Origin: a virus
Virus record (IMG/VR): IMGVR_UViG_3300045988_004635
Coordinates: 1-6,029 of that record
Reading direction: 5' to 3' (one strand)
Length of the DNA stretch: 6,029 nt
Made by a program: the position numbers and the translations under genes. The notes under the pieces were generated by a model. That model worked only from the letters and a program-made list of their open reading frames with translations, was not told the origin of the DNA and did not search any database. Position 1 is the stretch's first letter, and each line of letters opens with the position of its first letter. Shown here one piece after another: positions 56 to 6,029 of the stretch.

Positions 56-172
56 CAAGCAGCAGCAATAGAAGCAAACCGTAAAAAATACGAAAACGCA
101 GACTTTGCAGAGCAATGTAAGACAAAAGAAAGAGTAATCAAAAAGCAGATGAAAAAGAGAGGGACACTTTAA
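1..172 (+). CDS. VP4: Replication initiation protein (Microviridae VP4/Rep), C-terminal ~57 codons. It continues 5127..6029 across the circular junction. Stop is TAA at 170-172.
   Basis: Codons starting at position 2 read KMMEAENPQRLWRIKQNRQAAAIEANRKKYENADFAEQCKTKERVIKKQMKKRGTL*. The first 18 residues duplicate the end of the open frame at 5976-6029. Joined length is 1,020 nt (339 aa). Confidence 0.9.
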   Translation, partial: KMMEAENPQRLWRIKQNRQAAAIEANRKKYENADFAEQCKTKERVIKKQMKKRGTL

Positions 173-718: not shown

Positions 719-747
719 TAGAAAATCCTATTGACAAGTGATATAAT
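719..747 (+). promoter_or_regulatory. Candidate sigma-70/sigma-A type promoter with an extended -10 element, driving the gene string that starts at 776.
   Basis: TATAAT at 742-747 is preceded by TG at 739-740 (TGaTATAAT). TAGAAA at 719-724 gives a 17-nt spacer (4/6 match to TTGACA). The Shine-Dalgarno at 761-767 follows 14 nt later. A perfect TTGACA at 731-736 is only 5 nt from the -10, so it cannot be its -35. Confidence 0.5.
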
Positions 748-775: not shown

Positions 776-1003
776 ATGAAAAAATTCTACGAAATCAGTT
801 TCTGGACTAAAAAAGGCGGTGAGCAAAAGTGGAAAATCCACATTGAAGCAAAAAACGCAAAGGAAGCAAAAGAAATTGCAACTCTTGAATGGGAAAACGA
901 CAATCGTCTAAACGGAATGCACCGATTCACTATCAATGTCAGAATCTTAAAAGACAATGAGGAATTTAAGTGGCACTATTTCACAAAAATAAAGGAGACT
1001 TGA
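776..1003 (+). CDS. Hypothetical protein, 75 aa (MKKFYEISFWTKKGGEQKWKIHIEAK...). No family recognised.
   Basis: ATG at 776 is preceded by AAAGGAG (761-767) with an 8-nt spacer. The track ORF start at 731 is a TTG that is really the TTGACA hexamer. The ORF is tightly packed against the next gene. Confidence 0.7.
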   Translation: MKKFYEISFWTKKGGEQKWKIHIEAKNAKEAKEIATLEWENDNRLNGMHRFTINVRILKDNEEFKWHYFTKIKET

Positions 1004-1008
1004 CAAAA

Positions 1009-1398
1009 ATGATTAAATGCTATATCATGGACACAGACGCAAACGAAAATGTTGGAAAACATTTCAAGGTAAAAGAATTTGCTTGCAAAGACGGCTCTCA
1101 GGTAGTTTTCATAGACGACTATTTAGTATCTATCCTTGACATACTCAGAAATCAAATCGGCAAACCGGTACACATAAACAGCGGATACCGGACGCCGGCA
1201 AGAAATAAAGCCGTAAACGGTGCGAAATACTCGTACCATATGCGAGGAATGGCAGCAGATATCCGGGTCAATGGCATGAGTGCCAAAGAGGTTGCCAACA
1301 AGCTGAATAAAATTGTCCCGGCAGAATGCGGTATCATCGTATACAGTACATGGGTACACATCGACACACGCAAAAAAAAATACAGAAAGGGGGTGTAA
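1009..1398 (+). CDS. Zinc peptidase of the M15 family (Peptidase_M15_3 / YcbK-DUF882-like D-Ala-D-Ala carboxypeptidase fold), 129 aa. Probable peptidoglycan hydrolase.
   Basis: Motifs read from the translation: HFKVKEFACKDG; INSGYRTPARN; SYHMRGMAADI (H-x6-D zinc ligands); WVHID (third ligand). ATG at 1009 follows AAAGGAG (991-997). The GTG at 970 in the track has no Shine-Dalgarno and overlaps the previous gene. Confidence 0.88.
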   Translation: MIKCYIMDTDANENVGKHFKVKEFACKDGSQVVFIDDYLVSILDILRNQIGKPVHINSGYRTPARNKAVNGAKYSYHMRGMAADIRVNGMSAKEVANKLNKIVPAECGIIVYSTWVHIDTRKKKYRKGV

Positions 1399-1400
1399 AA

Positions 1401-1505
1401 ATGGCACTGGTAAGTCTGAAAGACATTAAGCAGGCAATCGCAGTACTGCGGGAAATCCTCGAAAAGCTGGACGAAATCTACCACGCTCTGCACGACAAGA
1501 GCTGA
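1401..1505 (+). CDS. Small hypothetical protein, 34 aa (MALVSLKDIKQAIAVLREILEKLDEIYHALHDKS), predicted to be a single amphipathic helix.
   Basis: ATG at 1401 is 7 nt after AAGGGGG (1387-1393) and 2 nt after the peptidase stop. It fills an otherwise empty gap before the next Shine-Dalgarno. It is below the length cut-off of the ORF track. Confidence 0.4.
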   Translation: MALVSLKDIKQAIAVLREILEKLDEIYHALHDKS

Positions 1506-1520
1506 AAAAGGAGAACAGCA

Positions 1521-1745
1521 ATGATAAAACCATGGAATGTACGTGACCAGACCAAAGAAGCTCTTGAAGAGCTATTAAGACGTAAATACAAGGAGATAGA
1601 CGGCAACTTCAAAATACTGAAAAAAATCTCAAACATCAACGATGCAAAGAAGCTGTTAGACGAAATCTGGCAGATGAAGAGCTTTACGAACGCAATCGAG
1701 ATGGAGCTTATCAGAAGGGAGTATAACGATGGCACGACATCGTAA
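1521..1745 (+). CDS. Hypothetical protein, 74 aa, charged and helical (MIKPWNVRDQTKEALEELLRRKYKEIDG...).
   Basis: ATG at 1521 follows AAAGGAG (1507-1513) with a 7-nt spacer. It overlaps the next gene by 17 nt, which is typical microvirus packing. Confidence 0.7.
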   Translation: MIKPWNVRDQTKEALEELLRRKYKEIDGNFKILKKISNINDAKKLLDEIWQMKSFTNAIEMELIRREYNDGTTS

Positions 1746-1851
1746 GAGGATGAGCGGCGCAAAAGACCGCCGTATGTTCAACGTAACCGCACGCAAAACC
1801 AAGACTATCAACCTCAGCCAGAAGCCTATGCGCGGTGGAATCCGGCTGTAA
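1729..1851 (+). CDS. Small basic DNA-binding/packaging protein, 40 aa. It is the gokushovirus ORF8 type and the functional analogue of phiX174 protein J.
   Basis: Translation is MARHRKRMSGAKDRRMFNVTARKTKTINLSQKPMRGGIRL. It is Arg/Lys-rich and has the C-terminal MRGGIR[LF] signature I recall from Chlamydia-phage ORF8-like proteins. GGGAG at 1717-1721 lies 7 nt before the ATG. It is too short for the ORF track. Confidence 0.82.
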   Translation: MARHRKRMSGAKDRRMFNVTARKTKTINLSQKPMRGGIRL

Positions 1852-1869: not shown

Positions 1870-2109
1870 ATGAAACACAACTACTACGGAATCTGGGACA
1901 GTGTAGCAAAATGTTACGCATGGGTTGGTGAGAGCAAGAACGATGCAACCTTTGCGCGTATGTGCAACGTGATGGCAAAGGACGAAAAAACCTTCATTGG
2001 GCAGAGCCCGCAGGACTACACCGGCTTTAAGCTGGCAGAATTCGAAGACGAGACGGGACTTTTCCAGAACTGGAAAGAAAAAGTATGGGAGGGCAAGCCG
2101 AATGAATAA
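1870..2109 (+). CDS. Conserved small non-structural protein of gokushovirus-like Microviridae, 79 aa.
   Basis: AAAGGAG (1856-1862) lies 7 nt before the ATG. The pattern YGIWDSVA..Y....KND..FAR.....KT.IG.SPQDY..F.L.EFEDETGLF resembles the family pattern (..I.D.KA..F...F...ND..A.R.F....PEDF.L..IG.FDD.TG) as I recall it. Confidence 0.78.
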   Translation: MKHNYYGIWDSVAKCYAWVGESKNDATFARMCNVMAKDEKTFIGQSPQDYTGFKLAEFEDETGLFQNWKEKVWEGKPNE

Positions 2110-2509
2110 ACGATACGAGGAAGGGCGAAAGCCCTTCTTTTCGGATGCAGGCGAAAACGAACGAAAGCAGTACGTCTGGGCAAAAGACGAAAACGGCGAA
2201 GAATACCTTCAAGAGACAGCATCTATCGACATTCAGGCTGAAATCGAAAGCTATGCAGACGAGTGTGATATTAAAAACATCGTGCGGAAAGCAAGTTTCG
2301 ACCCGGAATTTCTGAAAAGTCTATCACAAGGCGCAATAACCACAGAGGAAACGCCAATCACAGACATCACGGAATTTCCGCAGAATATCCACGAGTATCA
2401 CCAGATGATGGCAACGGCACAGGCAAAAGCCATGGAGCTGGCAAAGCTACAGGAGATGGCAAAAACAGAGCCTAAACCGAAAACCGAAGCAAAGGAGGAA
2501 GAACAGTGA
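2102..2509 (+). CDS. VP3: Internal scaffolding protein VP3, 135 aa.
   Basis: ATG at 2102 is 9 nt after GGAGG (2088-2092) and overlaps the previous stop (ATGAATAA). It contains the ECDIKNIVRK motif typical of gokushovirus VP3 (..ECDI.NI..) and has an acidic/Lys-rich tail. The 35-codon upstream extension in the track (from 1997) has no Shine-Dalgarno and lies inside the previous gene. Confidence 0.8.
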   Translation: MNKRYEEGRKPFFSDAGENERKQYVWAKDENGEEYLQETASIDIQAEIESYADECDIKNIVRKASFDPEFLKSLSQGAITTEETPITDITEFPQNIHEYHQMMATAQAKAMELAKLQEMAKTEPKPKTEAKEEEQ

Positions 2510-4215
2510 ACAGAAACAACGAAAGACGCTTTCTGAATGTGCCACAGATGCACACAAGCAGAACGCGTTTTAACCGTGACCAGACGATTTTAACCACGTT
2601 TGACAGCGGCAAACTTATCCCGTTTTTCGTAGATGAAGTGTTGCCGGGCGACACTTTCCAAATCGACACAAGCGCGATCATCCGAATGACCACGCCTAAG
2701 TATCCGGTCATGGATGATGCGTTCATAGACTTCTACTACTTCTATTGTCCAAACAGAATCCTGTGGGATGACTTCAAATACTTCATGGGAGAAGTAGAGG
2801 ACAAGCCATGGGCACCGACCAAAGATTACAGAGTACCGGAACTAGCATGCATTGGAAGTGAAAAAAACCCAGTGCCATACGAAAGAAGCATTCTAGACTA
2901 TATGGGAGTGCCAACAAAAATCAAAAAAGAATTCAGAATAAACGCGCTGCCGGTACGAGCCTATGTAAAAATCTGGAATGAATACTTCAGAGATGAAAAC
3001 GTAGAAAACAGAGCAGTGCTAGTAACAGCTGGACAAGATGAAGCATACCAGGATTCATACAGTGCAGCATACCCAACTCCAGGCACAAAAGAAAATCTGG
3101 ACGATACGCTTAAAAAAGCATACACCGGTGGACGATGCTTGCCAGTAAACAAGTTCCATGACTACTTCACAAGCTGTTTACCTTATCCGCAGAGAGGGCC
3201 GGAAGTAACATTACCGTTAGGTGGTAACGCACCGGTTGGATTGTATAAAGACACAGCGCTAACACAGTTTGGAACGGTAGGAGGACACGCGGGAATTTAT
3301 TTGAACCAGACGCTAAGCGGAAGCGCACTTGCACCAAATATCGGTAACAGCCAAAACGAAAACTACAAAGGATATGCGCTAGTAGCAGGCAGTTCAGACC
3401 CGACAAATCAAGTAAACGACACGGCCTATTTAGGTGCAGATCTGACAAGGGTAACCGCAGCAACAATCAACGACTTGCGAAATGCTGTTGCAGTGCAGCA
3501 GTACTACGAAGCCCTGGCGCGCGGTGGCAGCAGGTATCGCGAACAGATACAGGCACTATGGAACGTCACAATCAGCGACAAAACGGTACAGATTCCCGAA
3601 TATTTGGGCGGTGGACGCTATCACATCAACATGAATCAGATTGTTCAGACGAGCAGCCAGCAAAACGAAACAGATACACCCATCGGCGAAACTGGCGCAA
3701 TGTCAGTAACACCGGTAAATGAAAGCAGTTTCACAAAATCGTTCGAGGAGCACGGCTTTGTAATCGGTGTAATGTGTGTTCGTCATAATCACAGCTACCA
3801 GCAGGGACTTGAGCGTTTCTGGAGCAGAAGAGACAGACTAGACTACTATGTACCACAGTTTGCAAACCTTGGCGAGCAGCCTGTAAAGAAAAAGGAAATC
3901 ATGCTGACCGGTAACAAGTCAGACGAAGAAACATTCGGCTATCAGGAAGCATGGGCAGAATACCGGATGAAACCAAACCGTGTAAGCGGGCTTATGAGAA
4001 GCAACGCAACAGGATCTCTGGACTTCTGGCACTATGCAGACAACTATTCAACCGTGCCGACACTGTCGCAAGGCTGGATGGTAGAAGGAAAGGACGAAAT
4101 CGCAAGAACGCTCATCGTTCAAGACGAACCGCAGTTCTTCGGAGCAATCCGCGTAGCAAACAAAACTACCCGTTGTATGCCGCTGTACAGCGTACCGGGG
4201 CTGTACAAACTGTAA
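2506..4215 (+). CDS. VP1: Major capsid protein VP1 (Microviridae F-type jelly-roll), 569 aa.
   Basis: Hallmark motifs: TTFDSGKLIPFFVDEVLPGDTF, YFYCPNRILWD, RAYVKIWNEYFRD, TINDLRNAVAVQQYYEALARGGSRY, GFVIGVMCVR. The GTG start at 2506 is 7 nt after AAGGAGG (2492-2498) and overlaps the VP3 stop as GTGA. Confidence 0.97.
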   Translation: MNRNNERRFLNVPQMHTSRTRFNRDQTILTTFDSGKLIPFFVDEVLPGDTFQIDTSAIIRMTTPKYPVMDDAFIDFYYFYCPNRILWDDFKYFMGEVEDKPWAPTKDYRVPELACIGSEKNPVPYERSILDYMGVPTKIKKEFRINALPVRAYVKIWNEYFRDENVENRAVLVTAGQDEAYQDSYSAAYPTPGTKENLDDTLKKAYTGGRCLPVNKFHDYFTSCLPYPQRGPEVTLPLGGNAPVGLYKDTALTQFGTVGGHAGIYLNQTLSGSALAPNIGNSQNENYKGYALVAGSSDPTNQVNDTAYLGADLTRVTAATINDLRNAVAVQQYYEALARGGSRYREQIQALWNVTISDKTVQIPEYLGGGRYHINMNQIVQTSSQQNETDTPIGETGAMSVTPVNESSFTKSFEEHGFVIGVMCVRHNHSYQQGLERFWSRRDRLDYYVPQFANLGEQPVKKKEIMLTGNKSDEETFGYQEAWAEYRMKPNRVSGLMRSNATGSLDFWHYADNYSTVPTLSQGWMVEGKDEIARTLIVQDEPQFFGAIRVANKTTRCMPLYSVPGLYKL

Positions 4216-4225
4216 GAAAGGAGGA

Positions 4226-4252
4226 AGCCCGGGCAAAACCCGGGCTATTTTT
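4226..4252 (+). terminator. Intrinsic-terminator-like hairpin after VP1: an 8-bp stem AGCCCGGG/CCCGGGCT, loop CAAAA, then A-TTTTT.
   Basis: Stem 4226-4233 pairs with 4239-4246 (checked by hand). T-run is at 4248-4252. It sits between the VP2 Shine-Dalgarno (4217-4224) and the VP2 ATG (4255). Confidence 0.7.
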
Positions 4253-4254
4253 AA

Positions 4255-5130
4255 ATGGCAGCCTTATCAACATTCTTAACCGCACTCAACATAGCGGGAA
4301 ACGTTGCAAACACGGTTGGAACATTCGCAAATGCTGGAAAACAAATCGCAGGAGCATTTGGAGGATGGGGGCAAACAGGCAACAGCCAAAGCAGCGGAGG
4401 AAGCACACAGCAAGGCGGTGGACACTCTGAAAGCGGAAGTCAATCAGGAACAAACGTGCAGCAGGTTGATGACTGGCTTAAACAGGCATATGCATACCAA
4501 GGACAAGAAAGCGCCATGCAGGGCAAATACAACAGCCAAAGTATGTTAAAACAGATGGGATACAACACCTTACAAGCAATTATGCAGGGCGTATACAATC
4601 ACATCGAAAATAGCGTAGCCATGAACTACAACAGTGCAGAAGCACTAGCAAACAGAGAATGGCAAGAACATATGTCAAACACGGCATATCAGAGAGCCGT
4701 AGAGGACATGAAAAAAGCAGGGATTAACCCAATACTTGCATTTGCAAACGGAGGAGCAAGCACACCGGGAGGAAGTGCAGGAACAATCAGCGGAACAAGT
4801 ATGGGGCTGGCAAGCAGCAGCGCACTTGGAGTAAGTCGAAGCGGAGGATTTGTACCAAACGCATACGAAAGCTCTAGTTGGTCACAAAGTGACTGGTTTA
4901 ATGCCGCGCAAAGCTGGCAACAGATGCTCAGCACAACACAAATGACACCTTACGGACTACAGAAAGCCTTAACCGAAATCGGAGACGACACCGGAAAAGC
5001 AATCCAAAAGAGCGTAAAGACCAATACAAAAATCCAAGGAAACACACACGGAAACAGACAAACCGAAATGAGACAAGACAAAACTGGAAGCTATGGTGAA
5101 AAAAGAAAGCCGGGTGACTATTTAAGGTGA
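4255..5130 (+). CDS. VP2: Minor capsid / DNA pilot protein VP2, 291 aa.
   Basis: Hydrophobic N-terminus and Gly/Ser/Gln-rich linkers. It has the conserved core REWQEHMSNTAYQRAVEDMKKAGINPILAF, characteristic of microvirus VP2. It lies directly after VP1. Confidence 0.9.
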   Translation: MAALSTFLTALNIAGNVANTVGTFANAGKQIAGAFGGWGQTGNSQSSGGSTQQGGGHSESGSQSGTNVQQVDDWLKQAYAYQGQESAMQGKYNSQSMLKQMGYNTLQAIMQGVYNHIENSVAMNYNSAEALANREWQEHMSNTAYQRAVEDMKKAGINPILAFANGGASTPGGSAGTISGTSMGLASSSALGVSRSGGFVPNAYESSSWSQSDWFNAAQSWQQMLSTTQMTPYGLQKALTEIGDDTGKAIQKSVKTNTKIQGNTHGNRQTEMRQDKTGSYGEKRKPGDYLR

Positions 5131-6029
5131 GTTGTTACAAGCCATTAATAAGGCTGTACAATCCCGAAAACAAAGAAATAAGCGGGCGGGTGTATTCACT
5201 CGCCCGTTTTTCAGAAATATCGGGAAAACAGCTAAAATATGAAGATTTAATGTACAGAAAAGATGTAATGTTGATACCATGCGGGCAATGCATCGGATGT
5301 AGAATCAGACAACGCGAGGACTGGACAACACGCATAGAGTTAGAAGCAAGAGATTATCCAAGGGAAGAAGTATGGTTTATTACACTAACCTATGATGATG
5401 ATCACGTACCGGGTATGATAATCGAGACAGGCGAAATCATGCGAAAAGTGCAATACGTCTGGAAACCGAATAAGAAGCGTCCTGAAAGCGTCCAAACGTT
5501 GCTATATACTGACGTTCAAAAATTCTTAAAACGTCTCAGAAAGGCTTACAGGGGCAAATTACGCTATTTTGTAGCGGGAGAATACGGAGAGCAGACAGCA
5601 AGACCGCATTACCACATGATACTATACGGATGGCAACCGACAGACCTAGAAAATCTATACAAGATACACCACAACGGATACTATACTAGTAAATGGTTAG
5701 CAGACCTATGGGGCATGGGTCAGATACAGATAGCACAAGCAGTACCAGAAACATATAGATATGTTGCAGGGTATGTAACCAAAAAAATGTATGAAATAGA
5801 CGGAAAGAAAGGAAATGAATATTATGAACTAGGGCAGCAAAAACCGTTCGCTTGTATGAGCCTTAAACCAGGTCTAGGAGATAACTATTACAAAAAACAC
5901 AAGGCCGAAATCTGGAAGCAAGGCTACATCCAATGTACAAACGGAAAGCACGCACAGATACCACGCTATTACGAAAAGATGATGGAAGCTGAAAACCCAC
6001 AAAGGTTGTGGAGAATTAAGCAGAACAGA
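5127..6029 (+). CDS. VP4: Replication initiation protein VP4 (HUH rolling-circle endonuclease), N-terminal 301 codons. It is open at the window edge and completed by 1..172.
   Basis: No stop codon from 5118 to 6029 in this frame (translated by hand). N-terminus is (M)SCYKPLIRLYNP. Other motifs: CGQCIGCR; motif I FITLTY (5376-5393); HUH motif RPHYHMILYG (HYH at 5607-5615); two-tyrosine motif YVAGYVTKK (5760-5786), compare phiX174 A protein YVAKYVNK. The GTG start at 5127 overlaps the VP2 stop as GTGA. An in-frame TGA at 5115-5117 bounds the frame upstream. Confidence 0.93.
   Translation, partial: MSCYKPLIRLYNPENKEISGRVYSLARFSEISGKQLKYEDLMYRKDVMLIPCGQCIGCRIRQREDWTTRIELEARDYPREEVWFITLTYDDDHVPGMIIETGEIMRKVQYVWKPNKKRPESVQTLLYTDVQKFLKRLRKAYRGKLRYFVAGEYGEQTARPHYHMILYGWQPTDLENLYKIHHNGYYTSKWLADLWGMGQIQIAQAVPETYRYVAGYVTKKMYEIDGKKGNEYYELGQQKPFACMSLKPGLGDNYYKKHKAEIWKQGYIQCTNGKHAQIPRYYEKMMEAENPQRLWRIKQNR
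5183..5211 (+). terminator. Intrinsic-terminator-like hairpin inside the rep coding sequence: a 10-bp stem (one G-T/G-U wobble), loop TATT, then TTTTT.
   Basis: CGGGCGGGTG (5183-5192) pairs with CACTCGCCCG (5197-5206). T-run is at 5207-5211. It lies 57-85 nt downstream of the rep start and the VP2 stop. Confidence 0.6.
5975..6029. repeat. Right copy of the 55-nt terminal direct repeat, identical to 1-55.
   Basis: Same comparison as for 1-55. Confidence 0.95.

Follow-up and report, generated by a model that had tools for sequence, protein, structure and literature searches.

Peptidase gene of a gokushovirus-type genome

The window analyzed here is the whole 6,029-nucleotide (nt) stretch of IMG/VR record IMGVR_UViG_3300045988_004635, and the gene in question encodes a predicted zinc peptidase of the Peptidase_M15_3 family, a protein of 129 amino acids (aa) (Table 1). 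The window comprises an entire microvirus genome of the gokushovirus type. Its ends are identical over 55 nt (1 to 55 and 5975 to 6029, an assembly overlap), and the circle is therefore 5974 nt long. It carries VP1 (Phage_F), VP2, VP3 (Chlamy_scaf), VP4 Rep, and VP5 (Phage_ORF5) on one strand, as expected of the Gokushovirinae type, which also includes a circular genome of ~4.5 to 6 kb, and all of the recognized genes lie on the plus strand. The nearest genomes in GenBank are those of human, pig, and monkey fecal gokushoviruses, with 76 to 85% nucleotide identity over part of the genome (best whole-genome match, 82 to 85% across 50 to 70% of the window length). By its sequence, the window is a new variant of the gut gokushoviruses that have an M15_3 peptidase. 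Gokushoviruses rank among the commonest phages in mammalian guts.

The presence of such a gene in gut gokushoviruses has been known since 2012. Roux et al. (2012, PLoS One 7:e40418; PMC3394797) reported M15_3 peptidases in human-gut Gokushovirinae, proposed that they are horizontally acquired endolysins, linked them to Faecalibacterium, and took the peptidase tree as a sign that the host might be Gram positive. The gene class, its occurrence in gut gokushoviruses, its horizontal origin, the endolysin role, and the idea of a Gram-positive host were all published in that work, the peptidase point is repeated in later surveys, and Kirchberger et al. (2022) count peptidases among the accessory lysis genes of microviruses. 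An initial reading of the window made without database searches (here, the sequence-only reading) had allowed that the gene may not be new, which understated how well known it is. The gene of the window is the same as that of the human-gut genomes of Roux et al., with the same length and the same position between VP4 and VP5. Its product is up to 90.7% identical to proteins of GenBank records, where the relatives are annotated as "peptidase M15" or peptidase, and 95% identical to metagenome proteins; the gut Gokushovirinae records compared were MG945383, KX513876/7, and KT264791/3. The window differs from the Roux-type genomes in an extra orphan 75-aa open reading frame (ORF) located 5' of the peptidase gene, of which no homologue was found in any of 87 related genomes.

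Family assignment and predicted fold

The peptidase matched Pfam Peptidase_M15_3 (PF08291) over the whole profile (positions 1 to 108 of 108; E = 1.7e-22; 80 bits against a cutoff of 23.2) and PHROG 894, "endolysin" (E = 2e-43), and the match to Peptidase_M15_2 was weaker than that to Peptidase_M15_3. The motifs, by counted residues, are S58-G-Y-R61, S75-Y-H77-M-R-G-M-A-A-D84 (H-x6-D, in the form SxHxxGxAxD), and W115-V-H117-I-D119. The residues expected of an M15A enzyme are all present, with zinc ligands H77, D84, and H117 in SxHxxGxAxD and (W/F)xH and with R61 in SGYR, which was taken as the equivalent of the conserved arginine that binds the substrate carboxylate; the definitions of SxHxxGxAxD and (W/F)xH were drawn from the papers on peptidase M15A of Burkholderia phage ST79 and LysPM1 of a Proteus phage. 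The gene product is thus assigned to the Peptidase_M15_3/M15A zinc peptidases, and its catalysis is predicted. The protein is a relative, but not a member, of the MepK family: it scored 50.5 bits with the MepK equivalog model (NCBIfam NF053624; Pfam Peptidase_M15_2), for which the cutoff is 185, and it has no leader.

In the 87 related genomes, residues S58-G-Y-R-T62, S75-Y-H77, G80-M-A, D84, W115-V-H117, and R121 are invariant, and D119 is conserved in at least 60%. An alignment of 130 sequences (41 to 95% identity), which takes in tailed-phage homologues at 41 to 50%, left F19, E23, D28, S58, R61, T62, S75, H77, D84, W115, and D119 invariant and H117 nearly so (at least 90%). An AlphaFold (AF2) model built from this alignment had a predicted local distance difference test (pLDDT) score of 97.2 and was used instead of a single-sequence model (pLDDT, 45.7), which was discarded. 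The top Foldseek match in the PDB was 1LBU (E = 1.2e-4; template modeling score, 0.64), followed by hedgehog N-domains, Ply500, VanXYc, VanY, and LdcB, which have the LAS fold. 1LBU, the Zn DD-peptidase (muramoyl-pentapeptide DD-carboxypeptidase) of Streptomyces albus and the type enzyme of M15A, was also the sole PDB match by sequence. According to the model, the peptidase has the Hedgehog/DD-peptidase (LAS) fold. The profile search and the structure prediction, both of which the sequence-only reading had called for, thus agree with its assignment of an M15_3-type peptidase with an H-x6-D...H triad and an SGYR motif.

Lack of a leader and of membrane proteins

No N-terminal hydrophobic segment of the kind found in a signal peptide or in a signal-anchor-release (SAR) endolysin was detected in the peptidase by Kyte-Doolittle hydropathy or in the AF2 model. 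The highest 19-residue hydropathy mean is 1.09, the N terminus (MIKCYIMDTDANENVG) is acidic, and residues 2 to 6 are modeled as a β-strand of the globular fold (pLDDT, 98). The homologues align from residue 1 of the protein, and an upstream in-frame GTG at position 970 would add only MALFHKNKGDLTK, which is hydrophilic. These results bear out the earlier statement that the enzyme has neither a signal peptide nor a transmembrane (TM) segment.

The sequence-only reading had also noted that there is no holin neighbor, and this holds for the whole plus strand of the circular genome. When every stop-to-stop frame of at least 20 codons was scanned in all three frames of the plus strand of the circularized genome, none reached a Kyte-Doolittle mean of 1.6 except one, a 29-codon frame at 378 to 464 in the noncoding region, which has E and K within its hydrophobic stretch. 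On the same scale, the control proteins phiX174 E, MS2 L, and lambda S scored 2.79, 1.74, and 1.61, respectively. The neighboring ORFs of 75, 34, and 74 aa all exist as described in that reading, and none is hydrophobic. Conservation of alternative-frame ORFs across relatives carries little information, as an open short frame is to be expected by chance; none of these ORFs is hydrophobic. High hydrophobicity is seen throughout the minus-strand ORFs, which we treat as a composition artifact of the A-rich coding strand, the one that holds all of the recognized genes.

The window therefore contains what appears to be the cytoplasmic-endolysin part of a canonical holin-endolysin cassette, a leaderless enzyme of muralytic type, and no TM protein was found either adjacent to it or anywhere on the plus strand. 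The phage resembles phiX174 and other phages with single-gene lysis proteins in being very small and without a holin-endolysin pair. However, phiX174 E is an overprinted TM inhibitor of MraY, whereas no small or overprinted TM ORF was found in the three plus-strand frames of the window, and the candidate effector is an enzyme. The sole recurrently hydrophobic segment of the lineage is the N terminus of VP2, with a hydropathy mean of 1.09 in the window and up to 1.73 in relatives. It had been proposed from the sequence as a route of export; the segment is there, but it is only moderately hydrophobic in the window, which lends that route little weight.

Conservation of the gene and of the lack of a holin

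The peptidase gene is under strong purifying selection, with a median ratio of nonsynonymous to synonymous substitution rates (dN/dS) of 0.08 against 62 co-linear relatives (median dS, 1.26). Among 80 IMG/VR genomes picked by VP1 similarity alone (71 to 89%), 77 carry the gene; each of the remaining three is a linear contig whose truncation falls at the gene or close to it. Together with the invariant residues and the low dN/dS, this indicates that the gene is fixed in the lineage and is kept by selection. More than 1,500 clusters of homologous proteins were found at an E value of at most 1e-5; identity is 81% or more in each of the best 120, almost all of which lie on contigs of no more than 6.3 kb. 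A horizontally acquired passenger that is decaying or nonfunctional might be suspected in an accessory gene that occupies a variable slot downstream of VP4. That explanation is refuted by the low dN/dS, by the invariance of the catalytic residues (H117, at least 90% in the 130 sequences), and by the presence of the gene in every informative genome of the lineage, and its probability is practically nil.

The absence of a holin is not peculiar to the window genome but lineage-wide. Microviruses and tailed phages were compared by one matched method (greedy nonoverlapping ORFs; threshold, 1.8). A TM ORF was present in only 1 of 127 related microvirus genomes, an odd 8.8-kb contig, whereas 25 of 29 tailed-phage or prophage loci had a TM ORF within 1.5 kb of the homologous peptidase gene, usually ~20 nt downstream.

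Separately, relative L070 has a very hydrophobic 49-aa ORF (111 to 260; Kyte-Doolittle mean, 2.83) that overlaps the 5' portion of VP1 in a different frame, an arrangement reminiscent of phiX174 E. Neither the window nor any other relative conserves this ORF, which probably arose by chance in a T-rich stretch.

Homologues in tailed phages

Outside the microviruses, the nearest homologues come from Faecalibacterium siphoviruses: the endolysins of FP_Toutatis and Lelie (47% identity), each of which has two TM proteins encoded after it. The two that come after the 137-aa endolysin in FP_Toutatis are a protein of 131 aa, whose TM segments are N-terminal, and one of 105 aa, which has a TM segment at its C terminus. 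A cassette of this type is also present in a bacterial prophage. Like the 129-aa enzyme of the window, the FP_Toutatis endolysin and its relatives in Clostridia prophages consist of a single Peptidase_M15_3 domain and have no wall-binding domain. They differ in having one or two holin-like TM proteins encoded within ~20 nt downstream, whereas the microvirus gene has none in the entire genome. In size the microvirus and tailed-phage enzymes are alike, and both are cationic to the same strong degree (median net charge, +7; pI, ~9.5); this comparison of size and charge gave no sign that the microvirus copy is adapted for export.

More distant members of the family have been studied experimentally. 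ST79 peptidase M15A and LysPM1 are muralytic on permeabilized cells or by zymogram. They resemble the window peptidase in having only a Peptidase_M15_3 domain, with HxxxxxxD and (W/F)xH motifs, and in having 1LBU as the best structural relative. However, their hosts are Gram negative, and their similarity to the window protein is at the family level only. In addition, ST79 has a holin, LysB, and LysC, whereas the window phage has no dedicated holin.

These homologues bear on two other explanations of the gene. The first is that the enzyme never leaves the cytoplasm and, in the manner of VanX and VanY, hydrolyzes D-Ala-D-Ala or UDP-MurNAc-pentapeptide there, so that transpeptidation is starved and growing cells lyse without any export. 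The solved structure closest to it both in sequence and in fold, 1LBU, belongs to a muramoyl-pentapeptide DD-carboxypeptidase, the fold matches also include VanXYc and VanY, and the lineage-wide lack of both leader and holin would be explained. VanX expression lyses Escherichia coli. On the other hand, homologues that are 47% identical and of the same size and charge adjoin holins in tailed phages, a pairing that would then be pointless, and the characterized phage enzymes with a Peptidase_M15_3 domain act on mature peptidoglycan. Recombinant ST79 M15A, albeit a distant relative, was purified in quantity from E. coli, suggesting that it has no gross toxicity. Precursor hydrolysis is thus distinctly unlikely. 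Less probable again is the specific form in which the peptidase is an enzymatic single-gene lysis factor that destroys the D-Ala-D-Ala-bearing wall precursors in the cytoplasm; were it true, this would be the first case of a small-phage "protein antibiotic" that degrades a substrate and does not inhibit MraY, MurA, or MurJ.

The second explanation is a role in entry. The window peptidase is highly cationic (net charge, +10; pI, 9.6), as are DNA-associated virion proteins, and it could be packaged with the single-stranded DNA or be bound to the virion and open the thick Gram-positive wall locally at infection. For a tailless phage of 25 to 30 nm, the wall of the Gram-positive host that we infer below would be a barrier, and the phage has no holin. 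However, the tailed-phage homologues are equally cationic and are encoded in lysis cassettes, not in tail modules, and relatives that lack the peptidase but share the capsid gene set presumably get into similar hosts without it. A T=1 capsid also has little spare volume. We consider a role in entry very improbable.

Related prophages in Clostridia

A VP1-alignment scan that covered one genome per prokaryotic species yielded 17 VP1-related loci on contigs of >10 kb, 15 of which are in Clostridia. Every integrated locus with a VP1 identity of at least 40% is in Clostridia, including those of the isolates Oscillibacter sp. PC13 and Muriventricola aceti. Firmicutes isolates yielded their first microvirus prophages in the work of Kirchberger et al. 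(2022). The strong Shine-Dalgarno (SD) sequences found before every gene of the window are compatible with a Firmicutes-type host. Two long contigs with near-identical peptidases might have provided host flanks but were rejected: L001 is a head-to-tail concatemer of two different microviruses, and the apparent integration in L002 (1 to 1510) is a chimeric assembly in which a bacterial DUF2079 gene is joined without a gap to the middle of VP1.

The PC13 prophage (L115, 5700 to 10956; NZ_FOXE01000003.1) resides in a cultured isolate and is 5.2 kb long. It is flanked by 32-nt direct repeats with the palindrome AACAAAA-N6-TTTTGTT, adjoins a gene for an Xer-like tyrosine recombinase, and encodes VP4, VP8, an M15 peptidase, VP5, VP3, VP1, VP2, and a 42-aa single-TM ORF. 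It has the gokushovirus gene set and an M15_3 peptidase in common with the window, but its peptidase gene (L115, 6879 to 7262), the product of which is 46.7% identical to the window peptidase, lies between VP8 and VP5, and the 42-aa ORF (L115, 10600 to 10728) is additional. This ORF has its own SD sequence and is located after VP2, inside the repeats. The peptidase and the 42-aa TM ORF possibly form a two-component lysis arrangement. When IMG/VR was scanned with the Oscillibacter peptidase, the prophage itself was recovered (L132), and the other loci with long parent contigs were mostly of tailed-phage size.

Three Clostridia prophages that have no peptidase (L098, L119, and L122) encode a Holin_LLH protein (Pfam Phage_holin_6_1, above threshold; PHROG 6918), and L100 has a weaker Holin_LLH match. 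In the two holin-bearing prophages that were read through (L098 and L122), no endolysin gene was seen. The predicted genes indicate that Clostridia-associated gokushoviruses carry tailed-phage-type lysis genes in several states: a holin alone, an endolysin alone, an endolysin with a tiny TM ORF, or neither. We found no report of holins in gokushovirus prophages in the literature searched, the incomplete coverage of which makes this weak evidence of absence.

Proposed role in lysis

Taken together, these data make it reasonably probable that the peptidase is a leaderless single-domain endolysin, derived from tailed phages, which acts in the absence of a dedicated holin, and that the phage infects Gram-positive Clostridia. 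The gene would have passed by horizontal transfer from tailed phages of Clostridia to an ancestor of the lineage and would have been kept since. The enzyme, probably cotranscribed with the capsid genes (possibly from the promoter-like site in Table 1), would accumulate in the cytoplasm in folded form. Upon failure of the cytoplasmic membrane, it would degrade the peptide part of the host wall, and the progeny of the 5.97-kb phage would be released. The breach of the membrane would come from elsewhere, either from a core gokushovirus function common to the peptidase-less relatives or from the general collapse of the infected cell. Since no membrane-permeabilizing protein is found in the lineage, the enzyme would have to reach the wall by another route. 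The tailed-phage homologues need holins, and relatives with the same backbone lyse without a peptidase; a scheme of cytoplasmic accumulation followed by a breach therefore seems the most likely one. The sequence-only reading was right to single out the gene as a candidate lysis effector, and the same role was put forward by Roux et al. (2012) for what is, by its predicted family, an endolysin-type M15_3 enzyme.

Several observations weigh against a holin-independent endolysin. No route of export is visible, as there is no signal peptide, SAR domain, holin, or overprinted TM ORF. Gokushoviruses with the same backbone (34-aa ORF, VP8, and VP5) exist without the peptidase, which is therefore not necessarily the only or the main lysis factor in the group. 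Some of the related Clostridia prophages have a holin without an endolysin, so that the components do not occur as the canonical pair. The Clostridia prophages share only 40 to 47% VP1 identity with the window genome, whose host we infer from them. Finally, the literature searched, which was incomplete, gave no experimental muralytic activity or lysis role for any microvirus peptidase.

Export by the host in a manner invisible in the sequence is another way to the wall. The transfer might be nonclassical or chaperone assisted, comparable to that of LysA with Gp1 in mycobacteriophage Ms6, and the enzyme would remain inactive until the membrane is de-energized. The holin is absent and yet the gene is fixed and conserved, and the adjacent 34-aa and 74-aa ORFs, which have no known function, are conserved as well. 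Leaderless endolysin export is known in Gram-positive systems. The 34-aa ORF, however, is also found in peptidase-less relatives and is not a dedicated partner, the N terminus is modeled as an integral β-strand of the fold, and the tailed-phage homologues with the same termini use holins. Host export is, in our view, unlikely. It is weakened, as are precursor hydrolysis and the role in entry, because the holin-linked enzymes of tailed phages are otherwise indistinguishable from the microvirus enzyme. No paper that addresses the route of leaderless microvirus peptidases to the wall was found in the literature searched, which was incomplete and so is weak evidence.

An intact tailed-phage endolysin that is maintained by selection without a membrane protein would offer a concrete and testable handle on holin-independent lysis and also on the infection of Gram-positive bacteria by microviruses, which is still thinly documented. 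The holin-only prophages of Clostridia complement the endolysin-only lineage, and the PC13 prophage provides a cultured starting point.

Genome map and neighboring ORFs

The features of the window and the holin genes of the prophages are collected in Table 1. The promoter-like site upstream of the peptidase and the terminator-like hairpin past VP1 suggest that one transcript could span the peptidase and capsid genes, with the proviso that promoter-like sites are no more numerous in the window than in shuffled sequence. The strongest promoter match (TTGACA-17-TATCAT, 1000 to 1028) was given no weight; its transcription start would fall inside the peptidase gene, and shuffled sequence yields at least as many such sites. 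The noncoding region of ~600 nt (173 to 775) contains a perfect 13-bp hairpin (191 to 224), a 20-bp hairpin of almost pure G+C (284 to 326) within an otherwise A+T-rich part, and several direct repeats of the type GTTGAAA(C/A)TGTTG (467 to 574), with conservation at the DNA level in relatives. It is a candidate origin or regulatory region. An Rfam search of the window found nothing.

Table 1. Features of the window and Holin_LLH genes of related Clostridia prophages
Feature	Sequence	Coordinates	Strand	Remarks
Promoter-like site TAGAAA-17-TATAAT	Window	719-747	+	TG extended -10; upstream of the block of 75-aa ORF, peptidase, and structural genes; consensus match only
Orphan 75-aa ORF	Window	776-1003	+	Own good SD; nonhydrophobic; directly 5' of peptidase
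SD-like AAGGAG	Window	992-997	+	11 nt 5' of peptidase ATG; read from sequence
Peptidase, Peptidase_M15_3/MEROPS M15A (predicted)	Window	1009-1398	+	129 aa; single domain; ATG start; Pfam, PHROG
34-aa ORF	Window	1401-1505	+	Begins 2 nt past peptidase stop; heptad-repeat amphipathic helix
74-aa charged helical ORF	Window	1521-1745	+	Conserved in 74 of 87 relatives; no TM segment or family match
40-aa Arg/Lys-rich protein	Window	1729-1851	+	PHROG 10695; read as VP8-like DNA-binding protein
VP5	Window	1870-2109	+	Pfam Phage_ORF5
VP3 internal scaffold	Window	2102-2509	+	Pfam Chlamy_scaf; PHROG 24309 match from residue 36 of TTG ORF
VP1 major capsid protein	Window	2506-4215	+	Pfam Phage_F, E = 6.7e-139
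Terminator-like hairpin	Window	4226-4246	+	8-bp stem, 7 G-C pairs, T-rich tail; just past VP1; consensus match only
VP2 pilot protein	Window	4255-5130	+	Gly/Ala-rich N terminus
VP4 replication initiator	Window	5127-6029, then 56-172	+	Crosses circular junction; 339 aa in total
Holin_LLH	L098	6589-6927		Just upstream of VP8; Pfam
Holin_LLH	L119	1036-1383		Just upstream of VP8; Pfam
Holin_LLH	L122	6664-6993		Just upstream of VP8; Pfam
Holin_LLH (weaker match)	L100	6546-6887		Just upstream of VP8; Pfam

The orphan 75-aa ORF sits in the variable slot downstream of VP4, and searches of Pfam, PHROGs, NCBIfam, and the phage collection gave no match to it. The 34-aa ORF has a clean 3-4 heptad pattern of L/I, as in a coiled-coil-like amphipathic helix, and a net charge of about -1. 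Every one of the 87 relatives has this ORF, and hardly any of the GenBank records annotate it. It was considered as a dedicated partner of the peptidase, and this was rejected because it also occurs, adjoining VP8, in six peptidase-less gokushoviruses with 45 to 51% VP1 identity; it is therefore a core small protein.

In the peptidase-less gokushoviruses, the slot downstream of VP4 is filled by other small ORFs. In one of them, KT264799 (L091, 3972 to 4046), a peptide of 24 aa with a single TM segment (MVDVIQSIAIMLLSIAVIINAKRR) is encoded there, behind a terminator-like hairpin and a strong SD sequence; this tiny peptide could act in lysis or be toxin-like.

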